Under the pieces are notes generated by a model. The model worked only from the letters and a program-made list of their open reading frames with translations. It was not told where the DNA came from and made no database searches. From Candidatus Bathyarchaeia archaeon (lineage in GTDB: Archaea > Thermoproteota > Bathyarchaeia > Bathyarchaeales > Bathycorpusculaceae), in NCBI GenBank assembly GCA_038871175.1, contig JAVZIQ010000003.1:1-64000 (forward strand): a DNA stretch of 64,000 bases, given 5' to 3'. Position numbers and translations under genes: made by a program. This document shows, piece by piece, positions 2,780 through 58,301 of the stretch (position 1 is the stretch's first letter; every line of letters starts with the position of its first letter).

Positions 2780-3661
2780 TTAAATTTGCTGGGATGGTTT
2801 TTTATGGAACCCTAACTCTTCACAGATTATTTCCTTCACTATGGCGTTTGTAAGTAGATCTATGTTTTTAAATGTGTCTTCTGTGAATGTGGGGAAAACT
2901 TCGCCTATAACTTTCTTAATCTTCAATTTGTAGTTTAGGGGAAGATGTTCCATTTTTCTCTCTATGAAGGCTTTTATTTCACCGCCAAACTTTGAGTCTT
3001 CGGTTAGGGGTATGGCGCAGCTTATGTCACGTACGGTCATGGTGAGGTAGGTTATTCGTTCCATGGGTTTTTCTTTAACAGCCTCCCATGATAGAATTTC
3101 CTCAGGGATTGGCTCAAGGATGTATTTTGCGTAGGCTATTTGATCCTCGATAAATCCGCTTTCAACAAGGTACTTTGTAACCATATACTCCTTCACAGCC
3201 ATTGAAGTTCCGTAAATAATTTTAACTGCGGATTCTTGGGGAAAGCTATGTTCAGCCATAATCCTCCTTAACTCGAATGGAAATTTAATTCTGTAGAATT
3301 CTGGGGTTCCATGAATTATGGAGTGGGCAACCTGACGTCTAACCCCTCCTAAAGCCACGTTTAAAGGAAGGGTTGAAATCTTATCCATGTAAATGCTTAT
3401 TGTAGGCGTTCCTCTGGAGGCGTCATGGCATGCGAAAAATCCTCCCTCCTCAGAGCTTTCAAAAACTCTTAGGTTTACAGAGTATGTGATGGGAGGGCCT
3501 AAACGTTCATAACTTTCAATCATAACACTTAAAATCTTCTCTAATAAGGCTTCGTTAAACTCGCCGAACCTCTCAATTTTTATAATTCTCTTAAACAATT
3601 CACCCACCGGTTTCCCTCCATATAATATTTCTAAGTTTAAACCAAAAACTTTTTGAACCAT
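2780..3661 (-). CDS. Hypothetical protein (293 aa)
   Basis: Long ORF that overlaps the upstream hydrolase gene by 25 nt, so it is probably operonic. I recognise no motif except a possible HxxxH (VAHSIIHG). Confidence 0.5.
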   Translation of the reverse strand: MVQKVFGLNLEILYGGKPVGELFKRIIKIERFGEFNEALLEKILSVMIESYERLGPPITYSVNLRVFESSEEGGFFACHDASRGTPTISIYMDKISTLPLNVALGGVRRQVAHSIIHGTPEFYRIKFPFELRRIMAEHSFPQESAVKIIYGTSMAVKEYMVTKYLVESGFIEDQIAYAKYILEPIPEEILSWEAVKEKPMERITYLTMTVRDISCAIPLTEDSKFGGEIKAFIERKMEHLPLNYKLKIKKVIGEVFPTFTEDTFKNIDLLTNAIVKEIICEELGFHKKPSQQI

Positions 3662-4371
3662 TCCAAGATTAAAGCCAAAGCCTTATCTAAACCCCTTGAA
3701 AAAACATGGTCAGCATTCTCCACTATTTCAATTCTTTTGGGAGTGGAAGCCGCTTCATAAAGCCTATAGGCATGTTCAACTGGGACAAGCTCATCTGACC
3801 CTCCGTGGATAACTAGAATAGGAGGAACATTCCTAACAAGGCTTAAAAGATCATAGCCTTTCAAATCTTCAAGGAAGCTTTTCTTAAGCCTCCTTCCCGA
3901 TGGAAGCCTAATGTATCCATCTTCTTCTCTGAGGATTTCTGAATCTTCAGACCATGGTATCTTGTAAGGGGATGCCAAAGTAACCATGGCCCTAATCCTT
4001 TTCTCCCCAGCTGCTATTGCAACCATGCCTCCGAAGCTTGAACCTATAACGCCTAACTTTTCTAAATCAACCCTGCCTGTGCTTTCAAGAAATCTTAAAG
4101 CAGCCCTGTAATCTTCAATTCGGCCTGTTAAACATGTATCCTCAAAATCACCCTCACTTTTTTCCAGGCCCTCCCCACAACCTCGAAAGTTGAATCTTAA
4201 ACATGCATAACCCTCCATGTAAAGCCTTGAAGCAATAGCCAGCCACTTATCGCTGCCTTTTTCGCCCTCGAGGCCATGCAAAGTTATAATGCAGGGTGCA
4301 CCTTCAAATGGAAGGTGAAGGTTCCCAGAAATCTTTCGTCCGCCAGAGTAAAACCTCACAGGCTCAATCAT
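3637..4371 (-). CDS. Alpha/beta-fold hydrolase
   Basis: Nucleophile elbow GSSFGG, a C-terminal HGGSDELVP...ADH arrangement typical of dienelactone-hydrolase or peptidase S9-like folds, 244 aa. Confidence 0.85.
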   Translation of the reverse strand: MIEPVRFYSGGRKISGNLHLPFEGAPCIITLHGLEGEKGSDKWLAIASRLYMEGYACLRFNFRGCGEGLEKSEGDFEDTCLTGRIEDYRAALRFLESTGRVDLEKLGVIGSSFGGMVAIAAGEKRIRAMVTLASPYKIPWSEDSEILREEDGYIRLPSGRRLKKSFLEDLKGYDLLSLVRNVPPILVIHGGSDELVPVEHAYRLYEAASTPKRIEIVENADHVFSRGLDKALALILEWFKKFLV

Positions 4372-4599
4372 CCCTTATTAAACACCCCAATAAAACTTGT
4401 TACAAGGCTATTTATTTTAACTTAACTTTAAAGGTTATTATAACCTTAACTGTTAGGAGAACCATTAAAATAAACCCCTTTTTCAAAGGTATCCCTTTTA
4501 TTTTTTCTCATGTTTTTGTGAATAAAATTTAAAATCATGCTCATTTTTCGTTGCTTAAGTTAGCTAATCCTTTCAGCATTTGGATGGGAGGTTTGCCAA

Positions 4600-5223
4600 G
4601 TGGCTCAGCCTTCAGAAAACGTTGAAAAGAATTTGAGTTTGCTTCGGGTTTCCTGGATTAAGTCCTCTATAGTTTTAGGAGTAGTCTTTGTAATTTTTGG
4701 GTTAACAGCGATTTTAATCATTAAATTTTTAGATTTGGAAGGCTTACATCTTTTCTATGATGCGAAGGCTTTCGTTAATGATTATGGCTTGATAGGAATT
4801 TTCTTGGCAACAATTTTAGCGGGCACTGTGGTTCCCCTTGGAAGTCCAGCCATAGTTGTGGCGGCGGCCTCCTTAGGGGTTAATCCAAGCCATCTGATTT
4901 GCGTATCTACAGCTGGTTTCACAATTGGCATGGCTGTTAATTATGGCTTAGCTTATGGTCTTGGAAGGCCTTATGTCATGAAGAAGGTTGGCGAGTGGAG
5001 GCTTAAGGAGATTTCAGCCCTGTGGAGTAGGTGGGGATGGATTATTTATGCCTTTTTTGGACTAGTACCCTTTCTACCTGTGGAGTTCTTATCTCTGTTT
5101 TGTGGTTTGATAAAAGCTCGGTTCATCCATTTTTTAGCCTTGACATTTATACCGAGATTCTTTGTTTTCGCATTTCTAGTATATTTTGGAGCCATGCTTA
5201 GCGGTTGGCTTGGAATATCCTAA
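4600..5223 (+). CDS. Membrane protein, DedA/YqaA (VTT domain)-like
   Basis: 207-aa ORF with a GTG start. Multi-TM, with a GTVVPLGSPAIVVAAA segment reminiscent of YqaA/DedA proteins. Confidence 0.5.
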   Translation: MAQPSENVEKNLSLLRVSWIKSSIVLGVVFVIFGLTAILIIKFLDLEGLHLFYDAKAFVNDYGLIGIFLATILAGTVVPLGSPAIVVAAASLGVNPSHLICVSTAGFTIGMAVNYGLAYGLGRPYVMKKVGEWRLKEISALWSRWGWIIYAFFGLVPFLPVEFLSLFCGLIKARFIHFLALTFIPRFFVFAFLVYFGAMLSGWLGIS

Positions 5224-5324: not shown

Positions 5325-6167
5325 TTAAGTAAATCCTCCTAGAAGGAGGGATGCTAGGGTTGCGATTACAACTATGACTAGGGTTTCAAGGAGGGTTATT
5401 TTCCAGTTCACCCTTGTCTTTCTGGAGCGGTATTGTACGAGGAACACGCCTACAGCCACTCCTACAAATCCAAGGGCTGTTAGGATGTTAACTGGGTTTG
5501 GCAGGGCTAGATAGGCTGTTATTGGGATGATTCCAGCAAAGAAGGTTGTTGCGCTGCATATCATGGCAGCGTATAGGTTTGCCCGATTCACCTCTCTCCT
5601 TAAAATTGTAAACAAATTTTTAAGCAGAATTATGGATTTGTCCCTTTCCTTTTTGTCAGGAATATCACTGAGGCTGAAGTTCATTAAGGTTTGAAGAGTT
5701 GTAATGTCAGCTAAATCTTCAGTTATTCCGCCTAAAAGGAAGCTTGAAAAGTTTGTTATGGCAACAGCAGTCAAAGTTAGAAGGGCAGCGAAAGCAACCG
5801 CCTTAAATGATAAACCTGACATAAAAGAGGATAAAACCACAACAAGGCCTGTTATGGAACCGTCAACAATGCCTGCAACAACCTCCATTATAGGATCCTT
5901 CTTCAAAAGAAGGCTTTCCCACTCTCTGCTTAACCTTAAACCTCGAGGGGTTAAACAAACCCATCCACCCTCTTCACAGATTAATCCTTCAGAAGCCATT
6001 TCCTTTAACGCCCTCTCCAAATCGCCCATCTCAACACATACACGTCCAGCACAGACCCTGTCAATACGCCTTTTAAGAGAAACCTTCCCCAACTTTGACT
6101 TTTTCCTCAAACTCAACAAAACAACAACTTTAATAACGTCGGGCAACTCTTGAATCTCAAAGGACAC
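5325..6167 (-). CDS. Membrane protein with N-terminal winged-helix-like region and VIT1/CCC1-like C-terminal domain
   Basis: AGIVDGSITGLVVVLS, AITNFSSFLLGGITEDLAD and the C-terminal TM helices resemble the VIT1 family layout. The N-terminal 90 aa is soluble and basic. Confidence 0.4.
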   Translation of the reverse strand: MSFEIQELPDVIKVVVLLSLRKKSKLGKVSLKRRIDRVCAGRVCVEMGDLERALKEMASEGLICEEGGWVCLTPRGLRLSREWESLLLKKDPIMEVVAGIVDGSITGLVVVLSSFMSGLSFKAVAFAALLTLTAVAITNFSSFLLGGITEDLADITTLQTLMNFSLSDIPDKKERDKSIILLKNLFTILRREVNRANLYAAMICSATTFFAGIIPITAYLALPNPVNILTALGFVGVAVGVFLVQYRSRKTRVNWKITLLETLVIVVIATLASLLLGGFT

Positions 6168-6594
6168 TCAGCAGATCACCGTTAAACATACACAGCAAAC
6201 ACTCATAACAATCTAATAACTGATAGTTAAATGTTTTCGAAAAGGCTAAAAACTTTCATAAACCCTAAAAATTGCATACCAATCTTTAAACCAAAATTTT
6301 TCATTGGGGGTCTCTTCGCTTAATGAAAGCATTTCACTTACAGCCAAATAATACGGCTGTTCTAGGTATAAGTGAAACTGAAATAATGACCAGTTTGGAA
6401 AAGTGAATCTTAAACGGTATCAGGAGACGAGAATTGGACAAAAAAGGAATACACTACACTATTGCCATTTCCACGACAAATTCGAAAACGCCTTTAATTA
6501 CAAATACTTAATCAAATTTAACTATGAAAGCAATAAAATCTCCAGGAAAGAAAATAAATAAGCCTTCGCATAAAATGTCGTAGTCCATCCTAAA

Positions 6595-6672
6595 GCGGCC
6601 GTAGTCTAGCCTGGGCTAGGACATCAGCCTGCCACGCTGACGACCCGGGTTCAAATCCCGGCGGCCGCACCA
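6595..6672 (+). tRNA. tRNA-Gly (GCC), CCA encoded
   Basis: Cloverleaf folded by hand: acceptor GCGGCCG/CGGCCGC, anticodon stem TCAGC/GCTGA with loop CTGCCAC, T arm CCGGG-TTCAAAT-CCCGG, discriminator A plus CCA. Confidence 0.9.
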
Positions 6673-6698
6673 TCGTTTGGACAAAACATCAGCACTTT

Positions 6699-7927
6699 TC
6701 ACTTACGCTTCCTAAACAGTTTTACGCCTTCAACTTCGCATACGTATTCAAACCCGGCTTCAATCAGCTCAGCAGCCTGCTCAACGGTTTTGGCAGCTTT
6801 GCAGACATAAGCGTCTTCAGCGTCGCCGTTTATCAACTGAGTGTAAACAAACGTGTTCTTAATGTTTCTATGGCCCAGCACCTGCATTACATGGAGTATG
6901 TCCTTGGTTTTATGATATTCCATTGTAGCCTTCCAGTGGCGCAAAGTGCGAAACGATATTTTCAGAAGCCTTGAGTTTCCAAGCTTATGGGCAATTCTTT
7001 TACGGTTTCTTTCAAAGGTGCAGCTTAGGCTTCTTAGGCTTCCATAATTGCTGAATATGTTTTCGCCCTTTTTTGGAAGGCTGTTAAGCATGCTGACGAG
7101 TTTGTTTGAGATTTTGAGGATTCTCGGGTTGCTTCCCTTTTCAGGGGTTATTCTCACGGTTTTTGCTTTTGTGTCGATGTCGATCCATTTCAAGTTGAAG
7201 ATTTCGCCCGCTCTGGCGCCGGTTTCCTTTGTAATTTGAAGGAATGTGCAATTTGTTTGTTGCATCCTGCGATGAGGTCGTCGATTTCTCTTTCAAGGGG
7301 AATGAACGGAAGTTTTCTTATGGCCTTGTATCTTGGTTTTTCCCATTTTAAGCCGGCCCATTTTGCAAAGAGGTCGTAGGCGTAAGCTGTTGTTTCTTTG
7401 CCTGAGTCACTCCATTTCTGTGCAGCTATGGCTTCCTTAACGCTTTCTGGGTCTAGCAGGTTTGCTCCAAGCTTTACAAGCCTTCTAAGCCTTGAACCTT
7501 TACCGCGTATTGTTGTGTCTTTGTATCCTTGCTTTTTCATCCACCAGAGGAATTCAAGGAGTTTTCCCTGAAGCTCAGTTTGGCCAGGCTTCACTGTTGC
7601 CCCCGCAGCCCGCTGTTCAGCGTGGGTTTTAACTTCGGTCAAGGCTTGCACCGCCCTCTGGGCGGAGGACGCTGCGCATGATGCCTCATAGCTTCCTTGA
7701 CAATTAGAAGTTAAGCCATCAGCGCAATTTAAAATCTGCCTATCAACTTTTGAGGCATGTTGAAACTTTTCTGAACAGTTGAGATTTTTCTCGGTGAAGC
7801 GGTAACCGCACGTTCTACATAACCAACGTTGAAGGCTTGAGCCGTCTGCCAAATAGCGTAAACCGTCTCTGTAAAGCGTTGTGCCTCCGCATATTGGACA
7901 GGCAAGTGTTTCGGGCTTGGATGCCAC
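6699..7927 (-). pseudogene. Tyrosine recombinase/integrase split by a single-base frameshift near 7246-7248
   Basis: ORF 7190-7927 has an N-terminal Zn ribbon (CPICG...CRTCG) and a core-binding region. ORF 6699-7265 has the catalytic domain (ETGARAGE, LRHWKAT, LGHRNIKNTFVYTQL). The frames switch inside ...LIAGCNKQIA|TFLQITKETG..., consistent with one missing A. Confidence 0.8.
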
Positions 7928-48955: not shown

Positions 48956-49030
48956 GGGCCGGTAGATCAGCCTGGAATGATCGCAGCGTTGGCATCGCTG
49001 AGGTCGCGGGTTCAAATCCCGCCCGGTCCA
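48956..49030 (+). tRNA. tRNA-Ala (GGC)
   Basis: Acceptor GGGCCGG/CCGGTCC with the G3:U70 identity pair, anticodon stem CAGCG/CGCTG with loop TTGGCAT, T arm GCGGG-TTCAAAT-CCCGC. Confidence 0.9.
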
Positions 49031-50139
49031 CTTAAATCAGAACCCATGTTCCTATACTTCCTTTTGTGAAAGCATTTCTTCATGCTTAAACATTGTAGAG
49101 TAATGTGCGCAATGATGACGAATACTTATGGAAAGCTCAAAAACCTTGAATAGACCTCTGAAGTTATAGAGGCTGAATTTGAATGCTTGTGGGATATTTT
49201 GGGCTTCACCTTTTCATTAAGAAGAATGGTTGCTCACGGTTTATCCAAACTATGGGGCTCAAGCCCTATCTTAAATTGGAGAGACGCTTTTCTCGAAGGG
49301 AAAACAGACACTAGGCAAGCTGAAAGGAAATCTGAAAGTAAATTAATAAACTGAAAGCTCGCAATAAGGAGTAACCTAAGCTGAAGGAATGAGCCAGAAT
49401 GCCCATTGTTATAGTTAGGATTCCTAAGAAAATGACCAAAAAGTGGGTGCTGAGACATAAGAAGGATGGAATTGACTAATATAATATTTCCATATTTTTG
49501 AAATTTCAGTATCAGTTGCGGAATTTTGAATTGACGCCTGAAAACCTTCTTTTATTCACTATGCGTTTTCAGAAGCATGAAGGACAGCCTATGAAGGCGA
49601 GTTTGTGGGTGAGGGAAAGAAAAATTAATGATTTAGTGTAACTAATACTAATAAGGGCGCATGCAGAATCATTATAAAGGAAAAGGCCATGCAGAATCTA
49701 GTTGAAGCAAGGATAGATGTGAATCAGAAAATTACTAAAGGTGAAAAACTACCTGAGGAGATGATCCTCTACGCGGTGGACTCGGAACATTTTGTGATAG
49801 CAGCTAGACCCCTAAATAACTTGGAGGAGAAAGCCCTTTTAAAAATGAACGTTAAAGTGGTTAGTGAAAAAAGCACGTCATCATAATCCCACAAAAAATA
49901 TACAATTTCTATCAACTTGACGAAAACGACTATACTATTATGACCTCAGAGAAAGACCCAACAACAATCATAATAGCAATCTAACAGTAAAGGATGACGA
50001 CACTAAGAGTGATAAAATGTCTTCTTGCACCCCTAGGTAAGAATTTCTTTATGTCAATTTTCTCCAGCTAAATATACCCTTGCCCCAACCGTTAAACGCA
50101 TAAACATCAAAGCAGTCATTGGCGCTTCGCTTCTTAGAT

Positions 50140-50459
50140 GAAGATACTAAAATTCTCAGTCGCGAAAAATTTTGTGATGCAAGCCAAAAGCATTGAAAAA
50201 ACAGGATAGCGCGGTTCCCTTATCACTATTAGCCTACTCGGCCTGATAGGGCTCACACCCAAATCTATTTCAATATTGAGAGAACAATAACTTGAAGGTG
50301 CCGAGCGATAGTCGCATAAATTTGTCTGAAAGGTTTATCACCTTCGTTCGGGCTTGATTCAACTATCCCTTGACACCCTCACCCTATAAACATAACAAGC
50401 AAAAATCTTTATTTCAAAGAAGAAGCCTAAAAAGAATTATTCCACATTTATGCGCCTAT
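50140..50459 (-). mobile_element. Degenerate relic of an IS-A-type element (outer end plus the first ~60 transposase codons)
   Basis: Collinear with 12200-12514, including CCCTTGACACCCTCACCCTATAAAC (identical 25-mer) and the terminal ...CA(C/T)TTATGCGC. The reading frame MRLSLGTFKLLFSQY*...RYPVFSMLLAC is broken. The inner boundary is approximate. Confidence 0.65.
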
Positions 50460-50617
50460 TAGAAGGGTTGTTTGAATTAGTGCAAAGGGTAAGTATCATT
50501 GCCAGCACGATAATTGAGACGATGCCGTTAAGAAGATAATCTTCCAAGCTCTCTAGTTTTGAAAAGTTTATAGTTTATTTAAGCAATTTTTAAAAACTGC
50601 CACTGGTTAAATTTCAG

Positions 50618-52311: not shown

Positions 52312-52740
52312 TTGTTTCTGTTAGTTTTAAATAAGAAGCCATTCCAAGAATCAAGTAGCCATCATCGCAATTATCGTTACAATCGCCAGAATTGCAGTTG
52401 TTACTTGCTATCACCAACACTCCCGTTGCCAAGCCCTACTCCTGCTAATCCTACTCCGGGTCCGCCAATTAGGAAATTTTGGATGGGGTGAAGAGGTAAA
52501 CAACATGGGTGTGTGCTTGGAAGGAAATTGCAGCTTGTTATTGAAGGAACTAATCGAATCAGGTAAAGTTACTCATTACTTGGGTTCTCCATTAGTAGAA
52601 TTATCCATGCCATACTCAGCCATAACGTCTTCGCTTTTAATGTGGAAACACCTGAGCTGCTGGATCAGCTTTAGACTATTTATGTTTCGGCACACATGGA
52701 GCTATAATGTATCTTTAACTGAAAAACTGTGGCTTCCTTA
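52312..52740 (+). pseudogene. Internally deleted relic of a LIV-type solute-binding-protein gene (paralog of 56913-58301)
   Basis: Nucleotide collinearity with the intact gene at its signal-anchor/TP-linker region (GTTTTAAATAAGAA...CCTACTCCGGGTCCGCCAAT), at a KKLVELDKVD-like block and at GGCACA(CA)TGGAGCT..AA.GTATCTTTAACTGAAAAA. About 1.4 kb has been reduced to about 0.43 kb, with frame breaks. Confidence 0.7.
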
Positions 52741-53583
52741 TCTTTTTCCCTCTTTTAGTAGGGGTATTTCGCCTAGGTTGAGGTCTTTATCTATTTTTAT
52801 TTCTTCCAGTATCCAGGGTTTGTAGCCTTCCTTTTCTATTTTAACAGTGTATGTTTGGTCTTTTTCCAAGTTTTCTATCCAGAAATCTCCGAAAATGTCT
52901 GTTTGAGCAGTGTATTCCCTTCCAGTTTTCAGGTTTATGACTGTTACATCTGCTCCTTCTATGCATTCGTCTATTTCTGGGCTGTAAACCTCCCCTGCTA
53001 AAAATGGCTTCGGCAGGTTTAAATAGTACACTCTAGGCTTGGTTTTCGATTCAGGCTTTAAAACCTCAGCCTTCCCAATTAAATCCTTCAGCTCTTCCTC
53101 TTCCGCGAATTGTATGGCGTTGTGGGGGCAAACCTCAACGCATCTGGGAACCCTTAACTCATAAAGCTGGTCTATCCCGTCTAGAAGGTGGGCGCATCCG
53201 GTGCATTTCTGAGCAACATTCAAATCTTCATTAAAGTATATGGCGTTATAGGGGCAAGCCGTTAGGCATTCCCTGCAACCATTACATTTTTCAGGATTTA
53301 TCAATACTAGGCCGTCAACCCTCTTTGTTATGGCTTCAGCCTTGCAGACTCCCATACATGGAGCATCATCACAATGCATACACAAAACTGGAATGTAGGT
53401 TACCCTAACCTTAGGAATAGTTCCCCTCTCAAACTCCTCCATTTTAAGCCAGAAATGCCCAGTATCAGGCTGAGGCTTAGCATAAGGAGTCCAGTCGTTG
53501 CCTACATGCTCATCCTTACACGCTATTTGGCAACAATAGCACCCATTACATTTGGCAACGTCTATAACGAAGGCTTTTCCCAT
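52738..53583 (-). CDS. 4Fe-4S subunit of a molybdoenzyme, BthL (pyrogallol transhydroxylase beta)-like, with C-terminal beta-sandwich domain
   Basis: Ferredoxin-type Cys clusters (CNGCYCCQIAC, CMHCDDAPC, CNGCRECLTACP, CTGCAHLL, CVEVCP). The blocks NVAQKCTGCAHLLDG and KPRVYYLNL match my memory of Pelobacter BthL. The C-terminal ~80 aa looks like a carboxypeptidase-regulatory/transthyretin-like fold. Confidence 0.8.
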   Translation of the reverse strand: MGKAFVIDVAKCNGCYCCQIACKDEHVGNDWTPYAKPQPDTGHFWLKMEEFERGTIPKVRVTYIPVLCMHCDDAPCMGVCKAEAITKRVDGLVLINPEKCNGCRECLTACPYNAIYFNEDLNVAQKCTGCAHLLDGIDQLYELRVPRCVEVCPHNAIQFAEEEELKDLIGKAEVLKPESKTKPRVYYLNLPKPFLAGEVYSPEIDECIEGADVTVINLKTGREYTAQTDIFGDFWIENLEKDQTYTVKIEKEGYKPWILEEIKIDKDLNLGEIPLLKEGKR

Positions 53584-53589
53584 TCTTTT

Positions 53590-56181
53590 TCACCCCACTA
53601 CCCATGTTTCATAACATAGATTCACGTCGGGATGTAGTTTACGTTTGAATGCTTCTGGATAGGTTTTCATAAGTTCAGTGATGTCTGTTTTTTCAATTTC
53701 TACGAGGATGCCGCTGCAAACTTGGCCCACATTGTTTTTGGACATGGGTTTGTCTGGAACTATTAGGTCGATGGCTCCGCCTCTGTCTATTAGGGGGTTT
53801 ATTGATATTAGGTCGGCTCTTGCTCCGTGGTGTACTTGCACGGTTCCAGCCATTATTCTCTCGGTTATGTATGCTGCGCAGAGTACTGTTCCGCGTTCGT
53901 TGTAGACTTTAACTATGTCTCCATTTTTTATTCCTCTTTTAACGGCGTCTTTTGGGTGGATCCATACTGGTTCGTACATGTAGCCGTCTGGCCCTTTTAT
54001 TTTGCAGGTGGGTATTTCCCTTAGCCATGTTATGTCGTCTCCTTGTGCGTGGTGCCGCCATTTCGGATGGTTTGACTCTAGGAGCAGCGGGTATTTTTTG
54101 GCTCTTGGGTGGAGTAGGCTTTCTTGATGGGTTTCACCGTAGGGTATGTAGCGTGGAATGGGCGGCCTTTCCTCATCGTCTGGAAAGTGTTCAGCCAAGC
54201 CTGTGGATACTATTTCAAGTTTGCCTGTTGGGGTTTCAAGGCCTCTGCCTTCTGGCAGTTCGTAATACCATGTTAAGCCCGGTTTTGAGCCCCATGTTTT
54301 GCCGTGGGTTATGGCTACTTTGTTTTGAATTTGCTTCCACTCTTCCCATGTTGGATGGTCTGGGATGAATATTTTCCTTTTCTTAAATTCCTCCCAGCTT
54401 ATTCCATATTTTGTGGCAGCGTAACTGGCTTCATAGAATTTTTTCATAAACTCTTCGGGTGGTGGGAAGGCTTTTTCAACGCCCATTCTCTGGGCTATTA
54501 AGCGGCATATTTCATAATCGCTTTTTGATTCTCCTATTGGCTCAATGCATTTTTCTTGGTATGCAATGGCGTTTACTGCTGTTCTGCTGGTTATTATTAA
54601 GTCTTCATGTTCGAAGATTGTCTGTGCGGGAAGTATTATGTCAGCGAATGTTGCTTCGTTTTCAAGCCAAGGTGTAACTGCGACGATGAACTCTATTTTT
54701 GGGCTTCTAAATGCTTCGAGTATTCTGCTGTTCCAGCAGGTGATGTAACAGCCGTTTGCATTCCATACCATATGTATTCCCGGATGCCCTTCCGGTGGAA
54801 AAGTGTACTTCTTAAACTGGTCCTCTCTAGGCGCGCTAATAGCCCCTGTGCCATACCAGGTTATGGGAGGGTTCAAAATGGCGTCGGCTACGAGCACTTT
54901 TGGCACAATCATGGGAGAAACCACTTCAAATGTGGATCGGGCCATGGGGTTAGTCATGTAACCTGTTGTGGTTTCTGGATATTGAGGAACTGACGCAACA
55001 TTTTTTCCTATACCGCCTACTCGCATTCGTATAAATTGTCGTCCTGGTTTTCCAAGTCCCTGCATTGCTAGGCATATAACCTCCAGCCTTGCTGTTTCGT
55101 GGGAGTAGGGCCCCCTAATTTTTGGCCCGCCGAAATGCACCGCTATGGATGTTCTCTTTTTGGCCCATGTTCTAGCTAAAGCCTTTATGGTTCTGGCAGG
55201 TATCCCTGTGATTTTTTCAGCCCACTCAGGGGTTTTCGGTATTCCATCTTCTTCTCCCAACACGTATTTTCGGAATTCTTCAAAGCCTATACAATGGGTT
55301 TTAACATAATCCTTCTCGTAGGTTCCATCCTTTAACCATATATATGCAATTGCTAGGTATAATGCTCCGTCGGTGTTGGGTTTTATGGGAATCCACTTGT
55401 CTGCATGTATTGCGGCTGCAAAGTTGCAGTCGGGAGCTATGGCTATCAATTTTATACCGGCTTCCCTAAACCAGCGGCATACAACGCTGCCTATCTGTCC
55501 GGAAAATCCTGGAACGGTTGCTTCAGGATCGCAGCCTGTAAGTATAAGCACTTCCGTGTTTTCCAATACATCGTCGAAGATGGCGTCCTGATAGGCCTCT
55601 CCTGCATGGACGCCTCCTCCCATCCCCCATACATGCATGGCGCCCCAGTAATAGCCTTCCCAGCTGTCGGGATTTCTAACCTGCTGGGTGAATCCTCCAA
55701 GCTGGCGGAAAAGTTCGTGGTGAATGCCATGAGTTGTCTGGACGGATCCTCCCTGGCCGTGGCCGTCATCCTGTACAAGCACCGACCATAATCCATATTT
55801 TTCTTTTATGCGTTTTAACTCCCCTTCAATTATGTTTAGGGCTTCCTCCCACGTAATTCTAACGAATCCGCTTTTACCTCTGTTCTGGGGATTCCTATCC
55901 TCAGGGCTCCAATCCACCCTCTTCAACGGGTACTTAACCCTGTTAGGCGAATACACACGCTTTTTATAGGCTAGGCTAACCCAGTAGGGCAGAGTTTTAG
56001 CAGGCTGACTGAAAGACTTTCCGCGAGCCCTAATCTCATATAGCCTTATGCCATCGAAATGGAGAGGCTTAACCCTCAATATTTTGCCATTCTTAACATG
56101 AACCTCCAAAGGCAAAGCTGAAACTGAAATCCCGCCCAAACCATGACTCACATAACATAATTTGACTTCTTCTTCCATCAT
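53590..56181 (-). CDS. Molybdopterin oxidoreductase catalytic subunit (DMSO reductase superfamily), transhydroxylase (AthL)-like
   Basis: 863 aa. It has no N-terminal Cys-x2-Cys-x3-Cys Fe-S motif (a single Cys in the first 100 aa) and no twin-arginine signal. The start V.VKNGKILRVKPL...ARGKSF is like the Fe-S-less members. All + strand ORFs in this interval are shadows. Confidence 0.8.
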   Translation of the reverse strand: MMEEEVKLCYVSHGLGGISVSALPLEVHVKNGKILRVKPLHFDGIRLYEIRARGKSFSQPAKTLPYWVSLAYKKRVYSPNRVKYPLKRVDWSPEDRNPQNRGKSGFVRITWEEALNIIEGELKRIKEKYGLWSVLVQDDGHGQGGSVQTTHGIHHELFRQLGGFTQQVRNPDSWEGYYWGAMHVWGMGGGVHAGEAYQDAIFDDVLENTEVLILTGCDPEATVPGFSGQIGSVVCRWFREAGIKLIAIAPDCNFAAAIHADKWIPIKPNTDGALYLAIAYIWLKDGTYEKDYVKTHCIGFEEFRKYVLGEEDGIPKTPEWAEKITGIPARTIKALARTWAKKRTSIAVHFGGPKIRGPYSHETARLEVICLAMQGLGKPGRQFIRMRVGGIGKNVASVPQYPETTTGYMTNPMARSTFEVVSPMIVPKVLVADAILNPPITWYGTGAISAPREDQFKKYTFPPEGHPGIHMVWNANGCYITCWNSRILEAFRSPKIEFIVAVTPWLENEATFADIILPAQTIFEHEDLIITSRTAVNAIAYQEKCIEPIGESKSDYEICRLIAQRMGVEKAFPPPEEFMKKFYEASYAATKYGISWEEFKKRKIFIPDHPTWEEWKQIQNKVAITHGKTWGSKPGLTWYYELPEGRGLETPTGKLEIVSTGLAEHFPDDEERPPIPRYIPYGETHQESLLHPRAKKYPLLLESNHPKWRHHAQGDDITWLREIPTCKIKGPDGYMYEPVWIHPKDAVKRGIKNGDIVKVYNERGTVLCAAYITERIMAGTVQVHHGARADLISINPLIDRGGAIDLIVPDKPMSKNNVGQVCSGILVEIEKTDITELMKTYPEAFKRKLHPDVNLCYETWVVG

Positions 56182-56211: not shown

Positions 56212-56876
56212 GATACTATTTTTGCTTGCTTTAAACTTAAATTTTTCCACTCTCAGAATTTTCTTGATAGACCCTTCAAATATTATCTTTCCTTTTCCAC
56301 AACATGCAATAATTAGCAAGTTTAATCGCTAGACGGGTGGAATGTAGATAAAAAGACATACTCAACGCTTCAGACATCTAAAAAGCATCTATTGCTTGCT
56401 TGAATATACCTATTTTCTTTTCACAATCCCGAACGTAAAAGTAGCTTGAAAAATAGGTAAAGGTATTTATCAATTCATCTCCGCAGCCTAAGGTTAATCC
56501 TGAAAGATCCGCCCCTAACGCTTTGGTCGCAAGAGCAGCTTTTGCTTAACTCCTATGTCAGTCATTAACACCTAACAGCCATGATGGTTTCACTACTTAA
56601 ATGCCATTCACTTTGTTTATCGAAACCGCAAAGGAAAGCCTAATGTTGAATATTGCAGCGTCATTTTCAAATTTTTAACATTGAAGAGAAAGCACAAATT
56701 CTTCAGGTACCGTTTTGAAAGAGCGTTTAATGCTGAAGTTTTCACAGCTGAACCGAAAAATCTTTAGTTGATCCCTTCTGACGACTCACATCACGCTGGC
56801 GGCATAGAGCAGTTTGCAACAAGTAACTAAGCAAAGAAGCGTTACATTACTTTCATCATTTATATTAGCCCGCAAA

Positions 56877-56890
56877 TTTTATATTTATAA
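56877..56890 (+). promoter_or_regulatory. TATA-box-like element for the SBP gene
   Basis: TTTTATATTTATAA sits about 25-30 nt upstream of the in-frame GTG at 56913, which would give a leaderless or near-leaderless mRNA. Confidence 0.4.
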
Positions 56891-56912
56891 GGGTACGATA
56901 GACATTAATCAG

Positions 56913-58301
56913 GTGATACTGTTGTTAGTTTTAAATAAGAAAGCCATTACAAGAATTCAAGCAGCTGTCATCGCTGTTATTGTTATAATTGCCATAATTG
57001 CAGGTGTTGCTTACTATTTCGCAACTCTCCCGTCGCCAAGCCCTACTCCTGCTACTCCTACTCCTGCCACTCCTACTCCTGCCACTCCCACTCCTGCCAC
57101 TCCCACTCCTGCCACTCCCACTCCTGCCACTCCCACTCCTGCTACTCCCACTCCTGCTACTCCTACTCCGGGTCCGCCAATCAGAATAGGCTTAATACTT
57201 CCTTTGACAGGGGCATCTGCTAGGTTAGGGAAAGAGGTTCATGATGGAGCGATGTTAGCGCTTGAGGAGATAAATGAGAAGGGCGGTATGCTCAGGAGAA
57301 CAGTGGAGGTAGTAATCGAAGATGACGAGGGAAACCCTGACAAGTGCTTAAGCGCGGCTAAGAAGTTAGTTGAATTAGATAAAGTTGACTTGCTGACGGG
57401 TGTACTCCATTCGGGCAATGTTGTTGCAATAAGTGAGTATGTATCAAGTGTTGGGATACCCTACATTTCTCCCATTTCATCCGGTCCTGTGTTGGTTTAT
57501 ACGCAAAATCCTCAGAAATTCAGAAATTTCTTCACGATACATCCCTATTATGACGACGTTGCAAAATTGGGATTAAAGTTTCTGACAGATGTCGTAAATG
57601 CTAAGACCTATATGTATATAGGGGAGACCTTAACATTTTCTGTGAGAAGTGGCGAATTCTTAAGGGTTTTTGCTGCCGACAGAAAAATAAACTGTTTAGG
57701 CGAGATAATTATGCCTGCGGGAAGTAAGGACTTTAGTGAAGCCATAATAAAGGTAAGGGAAGCTAAACCTGACGCGGTTATTATTAATATCTTTAGCGGG
57801 GCAGAAGTAACCCTTGCGAGACAGATTTATGAAAATAGGCTGCCTGTACCATACTTTGCCATTATGGCTTCACTTTCAATGTGGGAGACAGCTGAGCTTC
57901 TAGGAGACGCCTCAGATTATTTGGCCTTCGGCACATGGAGCTGGAACGTATCTTTAACTGAAAAAACTGTGCCATTCTTTAACAAGTTTTATAAGAAGTA
58001 CGGCTATCGAGCTTGCGGGCTAGAGGGGCCAGCTGGATATGACCTTATGTATTTTGTAGCAGCTGCGGTTGAGAAGGCAGGCACATTGGAGTGGAACGCC
58101 GTTATTAAAGCCTACGAAACAGTGGAAATAGTTGGGGTAAGAGGAATTACTAAAATAGACCCCTCAGACCATGGAGCCATTTACTGGGCTCCAGGGTATA
58201 TAAATGGCGTATTGGCACAGTGGATGAGTCGAAAGCCTTACGTGATCTGGCCGCCTGAGATGGCTGAGAAGAGCTATCAGAAAGCGCCTTGGATGGAGTA
58301 A
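56913..58301 (+). CDS. ABC transporter substrate-binding protein, branched-chain amino acid (LIV, Peripla_BP_6) type, membrane-anchored with a (TPATP)n linker
   Basis: N-terminal TM anchor AAVIAVIVIIAIIAGVAYYF, a Thr/Pro repeat, then IRIGLILPLTGASARLGKEVHDGAMLALEEINEKGG. The ORF track starts at 56814, but I prefer GTG 56913. Confidence 0.85.
   Translation: MILLLVLNKKAITRIQAAVIAVIVIIAIIAGVAYYFATLPSPSPTPATPTPATPTPATPTPATPTPATPTPATPTPATPTPATPTPGPPIRIGLILPLTGASARLGKEVHDGAMLALEEINEKGGMLRRTVEVVIEDDEGNPDKCLSAAKKLVELDKVDLLTGVLHSGNVVAISEYVSSVGIPYISPISSGPVLVYTQNPQKFRNFFTIHPYYDDVAKLGLKFLTDVVNAKTYMYIGETLTFSVRSGEFLRVFAADRKINCLGEIIMPAGSKDFSEAIIKVREAKPDAVIINIFSGAEVTLARQIYENRLPVPYFAIMASLSMWETAELLGDASDYLAFGTWSWNVSLTEKTVPFFNKFYKKYGYRACGLEGPAGYDLMYFVAAAVEKAGTLEWNAVIKAYETVEIVGVRGITKIDPSDHGAIYWAPGYINGVLAQWMSRKPYVIWPPEMAEKSYQKAPWME
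57045..57170 (+). repeat. Tandem 15-bp repeat ACTCCTGC(C/T)ACTCC(C/T), 8 units plus a partial unit, in frame (TPATP)n
   Basis: Read directly from the sequence. Units differ only at two synonymous positions. The relic paralog at 52.4 kb has a single unit. Confidence 0.9.

Follow-up and report, generated by a model that had tools for sequence, protein, structure and literature searches.

A soluble molybdenum/tungsten enzyme pair of the pyrogallol transhydroxylase / resorcinol hydroxylase family, from an uncharacterised sister clade, in a Bathyarchaeia genome

A catalytic and an electron-transfer gene in tandem

The DNA analyzed here (the window: 64,000 nucleotides, forward strand of contig JAVZIQ010000003.1, GenBank assembly GCA_038871175.1) makes up one entire contig of a 1.72-Mb assembly from a Candidatus Bathyarchaeia archaeon, which is 91.6% complete with 1.7% contamination. 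On its reverse strand, as with all stranded features below, lie two adjacent genes for an enzyme of the pyrogallol transhydroxylase / resorcinol hydroxylase family, which carries molybdenum or tungsten on a bis(molybdopterin guanine dinucleotide) cofactor (Mo/W-bis-MGD). The first encodes the catalytic alpha subunit (53590..56181; 863 aa), which belongs to a branch of the family that we call clade B; the second, directly downstream after a gap of 6 nt, encodes the electron-transfer beta subunit (52738..53583; 281 aa). Comparison with orthologues gives dN/dS values of 0.05-0.09, so that strong purifying selection acts on both genes.

The alpha subunit matches the Pfam families Molybdopterin (E 1e-30) and Molydop_binding (1e-17). 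Its residues 24-63 (55993..56112) form an N-terminal domain of the type found in AthL, the large subunit of the Pelobacter acidigallici enzyme AthL/BthL, which replaces the FS0 [4Fe-4S] domain of DmsA/NarG-type enzymes; the corresponding family-specific model, PF21423 (AhtL-like_1st), scores 34.2 bits against a cut-off of 27. Residues 1-80 contain a single cysteine and no arginine pair. Immediately 5' of the ATG stands an in-frame TGA codon, which rules out an upstream extension that might conceal an Fe-S motif or a twin-arginine (Tat) signal; the absence of both, described in a first-pass annotation of this DNA, survives revision of the start codon. An NPDSWEG motif, located by alignment to the AthL structure (4v4c_A), spans residues 170-176 (55654..55674) and includes Asp172 and Ser173.

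For the beta subunit, the best match in the PDB is BthL (4v4c_B). The ferredoxin-type cysteine clusters and C-terminal beta-sandwich ascribed to it in the first-pass annotation correspond to matches to Fer4_11 (1e-22) and CarboxypepD_reg (PF13620, E 3e-12), respectively. The ferredoxin module covers residues 4-167 (53083..53574) and, by alignment to the four-cluster subunit PsrB (2vpw_B), holds 16 ligand cysteines in four motifs, while the CarboxypepD_reg-like sandwich covers residues 196-266 (52786..52998).

Placement in the pyrogallol transhydroxylase / resorcinol hydroxylase family

The large subunit of pyrogallol hydroxytransferase (4v4c_A) is the top PDB sequence match of the alpha subunit, with an E value of 2e-139 and 469 bits; TorA- and DorA-type reductases follow at about 248 bits. 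Similarly, the small subunit of the same enzyme is matched over residues 5-273 of the beta subunit with an E value of 4e-56, followed by PsrB at 3e-30. The sequence blocks that the first-pass annotation had likened to BthL proved real in the alignment with 4v4c_B: NVAQKCTGCAHLLDG here corresponds to NVAQKCTMCAHLLD in BthL, and KPRVYYLNL to KPRVYYKNL. The fold gives the same answer. An AlphaFold2 model of the alpha subunit built from an alignment of 113 sequences (mean predicted local distance difference test score, pLDDT, 94.3; a version from 12 sequences with a pLDDT of 60 was discarded) finds 4v4c_A as its top match, with an E value of 6e-75 and a template modelling (TM) score of 0.85, and MtsZ, TorA, and DorA as runners-up with TM scores of 0.76-0.79.

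A tree of 62 proteins was inferred with IQ-TREE, rooted on DmsA of Escherichia coli and including TorA and BisC, and a second tree of 104 proteins with FastTree. The resorcinol hydroxylase large subunit RhL was represented by its first 399 residues only, taken from the supplement of PMC7327174 (UniProt A0N0U2). In the IQ-TREE analysis, AthL, RhL, and the window alpha are united apart from TorA, BisC, and DmsA with an SH-aLRT (approximate likelihood ratio test) support of 99. Within this family, clade A, which contains AthL and RhL, and its sister clade B, which contains the window alpha, are each supported at 100, and FastTree recovers the same two sister clades. Neither tree places the protein in a clade of respiratory reductases. 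RhL shares 59% of its available residues with AthL and 40% with the window alpha; the window pair is 37% (alpha) and 41% (beta) identical to AthL and BthL. Models of neighboring families score far below their cut-offs (bisC_fam, 352 bits against 1017; torA, 272 against 1465).

The pair thus shares with the family its bis-MGD domains, the AthL-type N-terminus, the serine ligand discussed below, a BthL-type beta subunit, and monophyly with AthL and RhL, and sequence analysis could hardly make its place in the broad transhydroxylase / resorcinol hydroxylase family more certain. It does not fall in the AthL clade, as strict orthology to AthL would require. Of the first-pass designation as pyrogallol-transhydroxylase-like, family and fold therefore stand, while the pair is not an AthL orthologue, given its sister clade, its 37% identity, and its four-cluster beta subunit. 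A respiratory, membrane-bound enzyme of the DmsABC or PsrABC type was considered and ruled out, as there is no FS0 domain, no Tat signal, and no anchor gene: no DmsC/NrfD-type membrane anchor is encoded in the window, or beside the clade B genes in 79 related loci.

Only two characterized family members, the transhydroxylase and resorcinol hydroxylase, were found in the literature searched, and both belong to clade A. A characterized clade B member was not found there, in keeping with the first-pass remark that the archaeal members are uncharacterized. The 3,5-dihydroxybenzoate hydroxylase DbhLS of Thauera aromatica AR-1 is presumably a third family member.

A conserved core and a divergent pocket in the active site

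Ser173 of the window alpha aligns with Ser175 of AthL, and Asp172 with Asp174; Ser173 is the predicted Mo/W ligand. The Asp, Ser, Trp, and Glu of the NPDSWEG motif are invariant in all 99 sequences of clades A and B. In AthL numbering, H144, D174, S175, W176, E177, and R359 are invariant in both clades, and the equivalent of Y404 is kept in the subclade of the window protein, so that Asp172, His141, Tyr401, and Arg356 of the window alpha correspond to conserved active-site positions of AthL.

A second set of residues is confined to clade A: H145, W147, Y152, R/K153, C358, F468, and a loop with Y560 (AthL numbering). Several of these are reportedly substrate or cosubstrate contacts, according to the 2004 paper on the AthL structure. 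In the window alpha and the rest of clade B, the equivalents of His145, Trp147, Tyr152, Arg153, Phe468, and the Tyr560 loop are replaced or deleted, and these elements of the AthL pocket are thus not retained.

A beta subunit with ligands for four clusters

The cysteines of the beta subunit were tabulated from an alignment of 49 beta subunits paired with their alphas (42 from clade B, 7 from clade A). All 16 cluster cysteine columns are kept in the window beta, as they are in 31 of the 42 clade B sequences, and all 16 align with the 16 cysteines of the four-cluster subunit PsrB. BthL and all seven clade A betas retain 12, having lost the fourth cysteine of motif II and the first three of motif III. 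Eight further clade B betas lack only the second cysteine of motif III; in NarH, the same loss yields a 3Fe-4S cluster. The ligands absent from BthL are Cys80, C100, C103, and C106 of the window beta (53266..53346; C100-x2-C103-x2-C106), and they hold what we take, from the structures of NarH, FdnH, and PsrB, to be the distal cluster (FS4 in NarH), the port to the next redox partner. The window beta has ligands enough for four [4Fe-4S] clusters, which predicts a complete FS1-FS4 wire, whereas a strict transhydroxylase would have a three-cluster beta with 12 ligand cysteines. Taken together, strict identity as a pyrogallol transhydroxylase fails in these comparisons on three counts: clade, cluster number, and pocket.

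Three clade B alphas, at loci L028, L035, and L071, pair with 12-cysteine betas of the clade A pattern, so that either the distal cluster was lost independently there or the beta gene was exchanged. One of these, L035, comes from a cultured organism, Neomoorella stamsii DSM 26217.

A near-identical second copy of the beta gene

Most of the beta gene is repeated elsewhere in the assembly (52734..53520, no strand assigned, delimited by DNA identity); contigs C76 and C43 each break off within the second copy and carry one part of it at their ends. The last 434 nt of the gene are 97.7% identical to the end of C43 (C43:15036-15469), and 90 nt near its start (53428-53517) are 100% identical to the start of C76, where the copy takes up C76:1-170. 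The alpha genes adjoining the repeat are only about 72-77% identical, with the switch at the alpha/beta junction. In orthologue comparisons the beta evolves more quickly, as its identity to the pair at locus L001 is 72%, compared with 84% for the alpha. As the betas are nevertheless near-identical beside diverged alphas, recent gene conversion between two paralogous operons is the likely origin of the repeat, and assembly cross-talk is less likely. Whichever the cause, two different alphas appear to share one beta type.

Paralogues and distribution

The nearest homologues of the alpha subunit (76-84% identity) come from metagenome-assembled genomes (MAGs) of Bathyarchaeia and Nezhaarchaeota, whose isolate names look like hot-spring sample codes; the closest are Bathyarchaeia, and the organism is archaeal, as the first-pass annotation had supposed. 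It had also called the branch small, which is not correct: a pattern scan across GTDB species, each represented by one genome and with the protein type defined at about 50% identity, confirmed relatives in at least 597 species-representative genomes of archaea and bacteria. Among the matches listed are Nitrososphaeria, Methanomethylicota, Dehalococcoidia, Alphaproteobacteria, Myxococcota, Thermodesulfobacteriota, and Actinomycetota. Cultured carriers are Neomoorella stamsii DSM 26217, from the pattern scan, and Conexivisphaera calida, from a protein search. Clade B is far larger than the clade holding AthL and RhL.

Among 41 related genomes, transhydroxylase-like genes are present in 4, with 8 copies in this genome, 9 in its sister species, 7 in another genus, and 1 in a further genus. 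The alphas of this genome, at least eight, lie on C3 (the window), C76, C31 (three), C61, C55, and C10, with a fragment on C35. Those on C55, C10, and C31:1047-3641 belong to clade A and are 56-59% identical to AthL; those in the window and on C76, C31:8111-10840, C31:11096-13771, and C61 are 34-37% identical to it. The sister genome of the genus keeps both a window-type copy (91%) and a C76-type copy (76%). Contamination was rejected as the source of the many paralogues, on account of the 1.7% contamination and the nine copies in the sister genome, which include these two types.

Genes for the synthesis of the molybdenum cofactor (Moco) and bis-MGD, whose presence the first-pass annotation had proposed to check, were found in the genome: MoaA, MoaC, MoaE, MoeA, a MobA-like protein, two MobB, and a ModE-like domain protein. 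The Moco cluster on C43 also contains an ABC system, which belongs to the siderophore/B12 type.

Homologues carry the names "pyrogallol hydroxytransferase" or "TMAO (trimethylamine-N-oxide) reductase," which are routine labels; an assay behind either was not found in the literature searched. Several clade B alphas are long, at 1100-1190 aa, and homologues P0032, P0036, P0062, P0066, P0078, P0082, and P0086 contain a fused TorD/NarJ-type domain (PF02613); if so fused, the enzyme brings its own maturation chaperone. Long alphas also occur at loci L017, L020, L036, L068, and L079.

Gene neighborhoods and a phloroglucinol-type gene set

The closest relatives of the window pair with informative surroundings are the orthologues at loci L001, L002, and L003 (81-84% identity), which sit in operon-like clusters. 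At L001 and L002 the cluster starts with a TorD/NarJ-like chaperone gene, and in L003 another alpha-beta pair stands in its place. The alpha and beta genes are followed by genes for a cupin (L001 only), a Cyclase-family protein (PF04199), and a short-chain dehydrogenase/reductase (SDR). On the opposite strand lie genes for a thiolase-like protein with its DUF35 partner. Genes for an enoyl-CoA hydratase, a family III CoA-transferase (L001, L002), and a major facilitator superfamily (MFS) transporter (L001) come next. The makeup of these clusters resembles, by analogy, the anaerobic phloroglucinol pathway, in which an SDR (phloroglucinol reductase) and a cyclase-family dihydrophloroglucinol cyclohydrolase carry out the first two steps, and a 3-hydroxyacyl-CoA-dehydrogenase-family enzyme and a BKACE-family lyase act later; phloroglucinol gene clusters have been noted in Archaeoglobus (PMC10470551). 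The tie of the SDR and cyclase to the phloroglucinol enzymes is a family-level analogy only.

In the genome studied here, the corresponding genes are scattered over several contigs. On C31, the orthologous SDR (75%) neighbors a clade A pair; C2 carries the cyclase (83%) and C10 a second one, and the thiolase, DUF35, and hydratase genes are on C21. The CoA-transferase gene on C46 adjoins an orphan four-cluster beta gene. A cluster at C13:13930-24116 encodes a 3-hydroxyacyl-CoA dehydrogenase (3HCDH), a BKACE protein, a cupin, an SDR, and an acetoacetyl-CoA-synthetase-like protein, with an MFS transporter nearby; compared with the phloroglucinol cluster of Clostridium scatologenes, it contains the same enzyme families minus the cyclase, which is found on C2 and C10. 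BKACE also occurs in two related genomes without transhydroxylase-like genes. Among the 41 related genomes, the long cyclase type is restricted to this genome and one other genome rich in transhydroxylase-like genes, where it lies beside the orthologue of the window pair.

Genes of the 2,4-diacetylphloroglucinol (DAPG)/phloretin-hydrolase family (PF18089) are found at C55:1406-2029, C46:3601-4146, and C46:4272-4910. Both contigs bear transhydroxylase-like genes as well, and two of the three hydrolase-family genes are beside such genes, the C55 copy directly adjoining the clade A pair. Bacterial phloretin hydrolase frees phloroglucinol from flavonoid breakdown products. Among the 41 related genomes, the family is confined to this genus. 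Together, these genes make the genome look equipped for the anaerobic breakdown of plant polyphenols.

Several further features of these neighborhoods were observed. An island at C31:195-17058 holds three transhydroxylase-like alphas (one of clade A, two of clade B) and two betas, along with genes for the SDR, a B12-binding radical SAM (S-adenosylmethionine) protein, a TorD-like chaperone, a thiamine pyrophosphate (TPP) enzyme, TatA, and TatC; a twin-arginine signal is absent from all of its transhydroxylase-like alphas. Aldehyde:ferredoxin-oxidoreductase-like proteins, judged by their N-terminal sequence, flank the clade A pair on C55 (C55:1-1368 and 5759-7618), and a homologue directly precedes a clade B pair at L004 (around 2800-4700). 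In the window itself, positions 48956-50617 contain a tRNA-Ala (GGC) gene followed by about 1.6 kb without an open reading frame longer than 75 aa, after which the block of AcnX, molybdoenzyme, and Liv genes begins. The Liv-type binding protein of this block (56814-58301) has a long (PTPAT)n linker after an N-terminal membrane segment, and similar proline/threonine-rich linkers are found in several of the roughly 16 Liv-type binding proteins of the genome. A decayed TorD-like chaperone gene was sought upstream of the window alpha, and none was found.

Proposed function and alternatives

On balance, we favor as the probable function that of a soluble, cytoplasmic alpha-beta Mo/W-bis-MGD enzyme of the uncharacterized clade B which acts on phenolic ring hydroxyls as part of a phloroglucinol-type route. 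The alpha subunit would add, remove, or shift a phenolic ring hydroxyl to give a phloroglucinol-type (meta-hydroxylated) product, which the SDR would dearomatize before the cyclase-family hydrolase opens the ring. Since the distal cluster is retained in clade B, from which the pocket residues and loop confined to clade A are missing, a net two-electron reaction would be more likely than the redox-neutral, cosubstrate-dependent reaction of AthL. It might be a hydroxylation with water or, more probably, a reductive dehydroxylation, which is energetically more plausible than oxidation for a fermentative archaeon. Electrons would pass from the Mo center over the pterin and FS1-FS4 to a soluble partner such as ferredoxin, and the paralogues, at least eight in number, together probably cover a range of regiospecificities for polyphenol catabolism.

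A number of observations weigh against this proposal. The window pair has no catabolic neighbors, its flanks being AcnX-type dehydratase genes on one side and a Liv-type ABC system on the other. The latter adjacency was not used as evidence, because about 16 Liv-type binding proteins are encoded in the genome and the 4 within 10 kb of a transhydroxylase-like alpha represent a weak enrichment. The top PDB matches of the SDRs and the cyclase are a gluconate 5-dehydrogenase and generic cyclase-family hydrolases, and none points specifically to a solved phloroglucinol enzyme. A candidate gallate decarboxylase was not found in the genome; its single UbiD-family gene is located elsewhere and is probably a component of the mevalonate pathway of archaea. 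Likewise, no match to ModA or WtpA was found in this 92% complete genome (TupA was not searched for), despite its many Mo/W enzymes. Moreover, the four clusters may be an ancestral state without function, and cluster number is not cleanly tied to reaction type, as RhL, which catalyzes a net oxidation, belongs to clade A.

If the pair were a true polyhydroxybenzene transhydroxylase isoenzyme, the reaction would be redox-neutral, with the hydroxyl taken from a tetrahydroxybenzene cosubstrate and the Fe-S clusters non-catalytic. The shared family and fold, the conserved Ser, Asp, His, and Tyr positions, and the SDR and cyclase genes adjoining the orthologues all agree with this, and as Pelobacter massiliensis needs several successive transhydroxylations, many paralogues would fit as well. 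We nevertheless consider it unlikely: the window pair lies in the sister clade, three copies closer to AthL are available in the same genome to fill the role, the clade A pocket residues and the Tyr560 loop are absent, and the distal cluster lost from AthL-type betas is strictly kept in most of clade B. The complete electron wire would suit an S- or N-oxide reductase, or another non-aromatic oxidoreductase, fed by the four-cluster beta. TorA, DorA, and BisC are the next-closest characterized enzymes and are also Ser-ligated, the window holds no aromatic-pathway neighbor, and JGI (Joint Genome Institute) labels several homologues as trimethylamine-N-oxide reductase. These labels are automatic, however, and the NCBIfam scores are far under every S/N-oxide reductase cut-off. 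The tree separates the window alpha from TorA and BisC with a support of 99-100, TorA, DorA, and BisC have neither a BthL-type beta nor an AthL-type N-terminal domain, and the orthologue operons contain ring-cleavage and beta-oxidation-type genes, all of which makes such a reductase quite unlikely.

That the window pair is a redundant or decaying duplicate, with the C76/C43 operon and its TorD-like chaperone as the working copy, is very improbable. The window copy does lack an adjacent chaperone gene or a remnant of one, and its beta is almost identical to that of C76/C43. Its reading frames are intact, however, with the low dN/dS values given above, and the other genome of the genus has retained both copy types; the window and C76 alphas share only 77% identity, so what separates them is divergence under selection and not decay.

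The preferred assignment, of a clade B enzyme acting on phenolic ring hydroxyls, can be extended to the clade as a whole, although we do so tentatively and see this as a possibility of well below even weight. Clade B would then consist not of transhydroxylases but of a functionally distinct and widespread group of soluble, four-cluster Mo/W phenol oxidoreductases, which in fermentative archaea would serve as reductive dehydroxylases that use ring hydroxyls as electron sinks. Polyhydroxybenzenes derived from tannins or flavonoids would be dehydroxylated and the rings funneled into phloroglucinol-type cleavage, and the 8-9 paralogues per genome would represent a battery for substrate range, like the catechol dehydroxylases of gut Eggerthella. 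If true, hot-spring Bathyarchaeia would be anaerobic polyphenol degraders.

Relation to the literature and implications

In metagenomic studies of Chloroflexi and SAR116, transhydroxylase-like genes already receive the annotation of pyrogallol hydroxytransferase as a matter of routine (PMC3971608, PMC4959651, bioRxiv 10.64898/2026.07.17.739263). Nothing in the literature searched links Bathyarchaeia with an enzyme of the pyrogallol transhydroxylase family or with phloroglucinol metabolism, and no report of anaerobic polyphenol degradation by archaea was found there beyond the Archaeoglobus phloroglucinol gene clusters (PMC10470551). Three points go beyond that literature: the division of the family into clades A and B, the beta subunit with four clusters, and the archaeal expansion of paralogues with a phloroglucinol-like gene set.

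If clade B enzymes carry out net redox chemistry on phenolic hydroxyls, many inferences of "pyrogallol fermentation" from metagenomes would need revision, and a new O2-independent route of polyphenol turnover would become testable, with consequences for how carbon is preserved in anoxic soils, sediments, and peat. The combination, in a single 1.7-Mb Bathyarchaeia genome, of a large paralogue family, phloretin-hydrolase-family genes, and a phloroglucinol-like gene set offers a testable hypothesis for the use of plant aromatics by these uncultured and abundant archaea.

Comparison with known systems

The closest known system is AthL/BthL (PgtL) of P. acidigallici (EC 1.97.1.2; PDB 4V4C/D/E), which has the same cytoplasmic alpha-beta architecture. 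The two are alike in the AthL-type N-terminal domain that replaces FS0, in the absence of a Tat signal, in the NPDSWEG serine ligand and the equivalents of Asp174, His144, Tyr404, and Arg359, and in a beta subunit made of a ferredoxin module and a C-terminal beta-sandwich. They differ in that BthL has three clusters (12 cysteines) while the window beta has 16 cysteines, and in that His145, Trp147, Tyr152, Arg153, Cys358, Phe468, and the Tyr560 loop are absent from the window alpha. RhL/RhS of Azoarcus (Aromatoleum) anaerobius belongs to the same family and catalyzes a net oxidative hydroxylation with water, which is the redox type proposed here; however, RhL is a clade A protein, and it was reported from a nitrate reducer rather than a fermentative archaeon.

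Among more distant enzymes, DorA, TorA, BisC, and MtsZ (DMSO reductase family type III) are likewise Ser-ligated bis-MGD proteins without FS0. Unlike the window pair, each consists of a single subunit with no partner of the BthL type. They form a clade of their own, and the Tat pathway exports TorA and DorA. With PsrB, DmsB, and NarH, the window beta shares all 16 cysteines of the four CxxCxxCxxxC-type motifs. Those subunits dock on a membrane anchor (PsrC, DmsC, or NarI) and serve alphas with FS0 that are mostly Tat-exported, whereas the window pair has no anchor gene and no FS0, and carries an extra C-terminal beta-sandwich.

Finally, the gut catechol dehydroxylases Dadh, Hcdh, and Cldh of Eggerthella and Gordonibacter are bis-MGD enzymes that reductively remove ring hydroxyls and form large paralogue families within a single genome. 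They represent another branch of the superfamily, close to acetylene hydratase and distant from the transhydroxylase (PMC7028382). Were the window pair to act as a reductive dehydroxylase, these enzymes would be its functional analogues.

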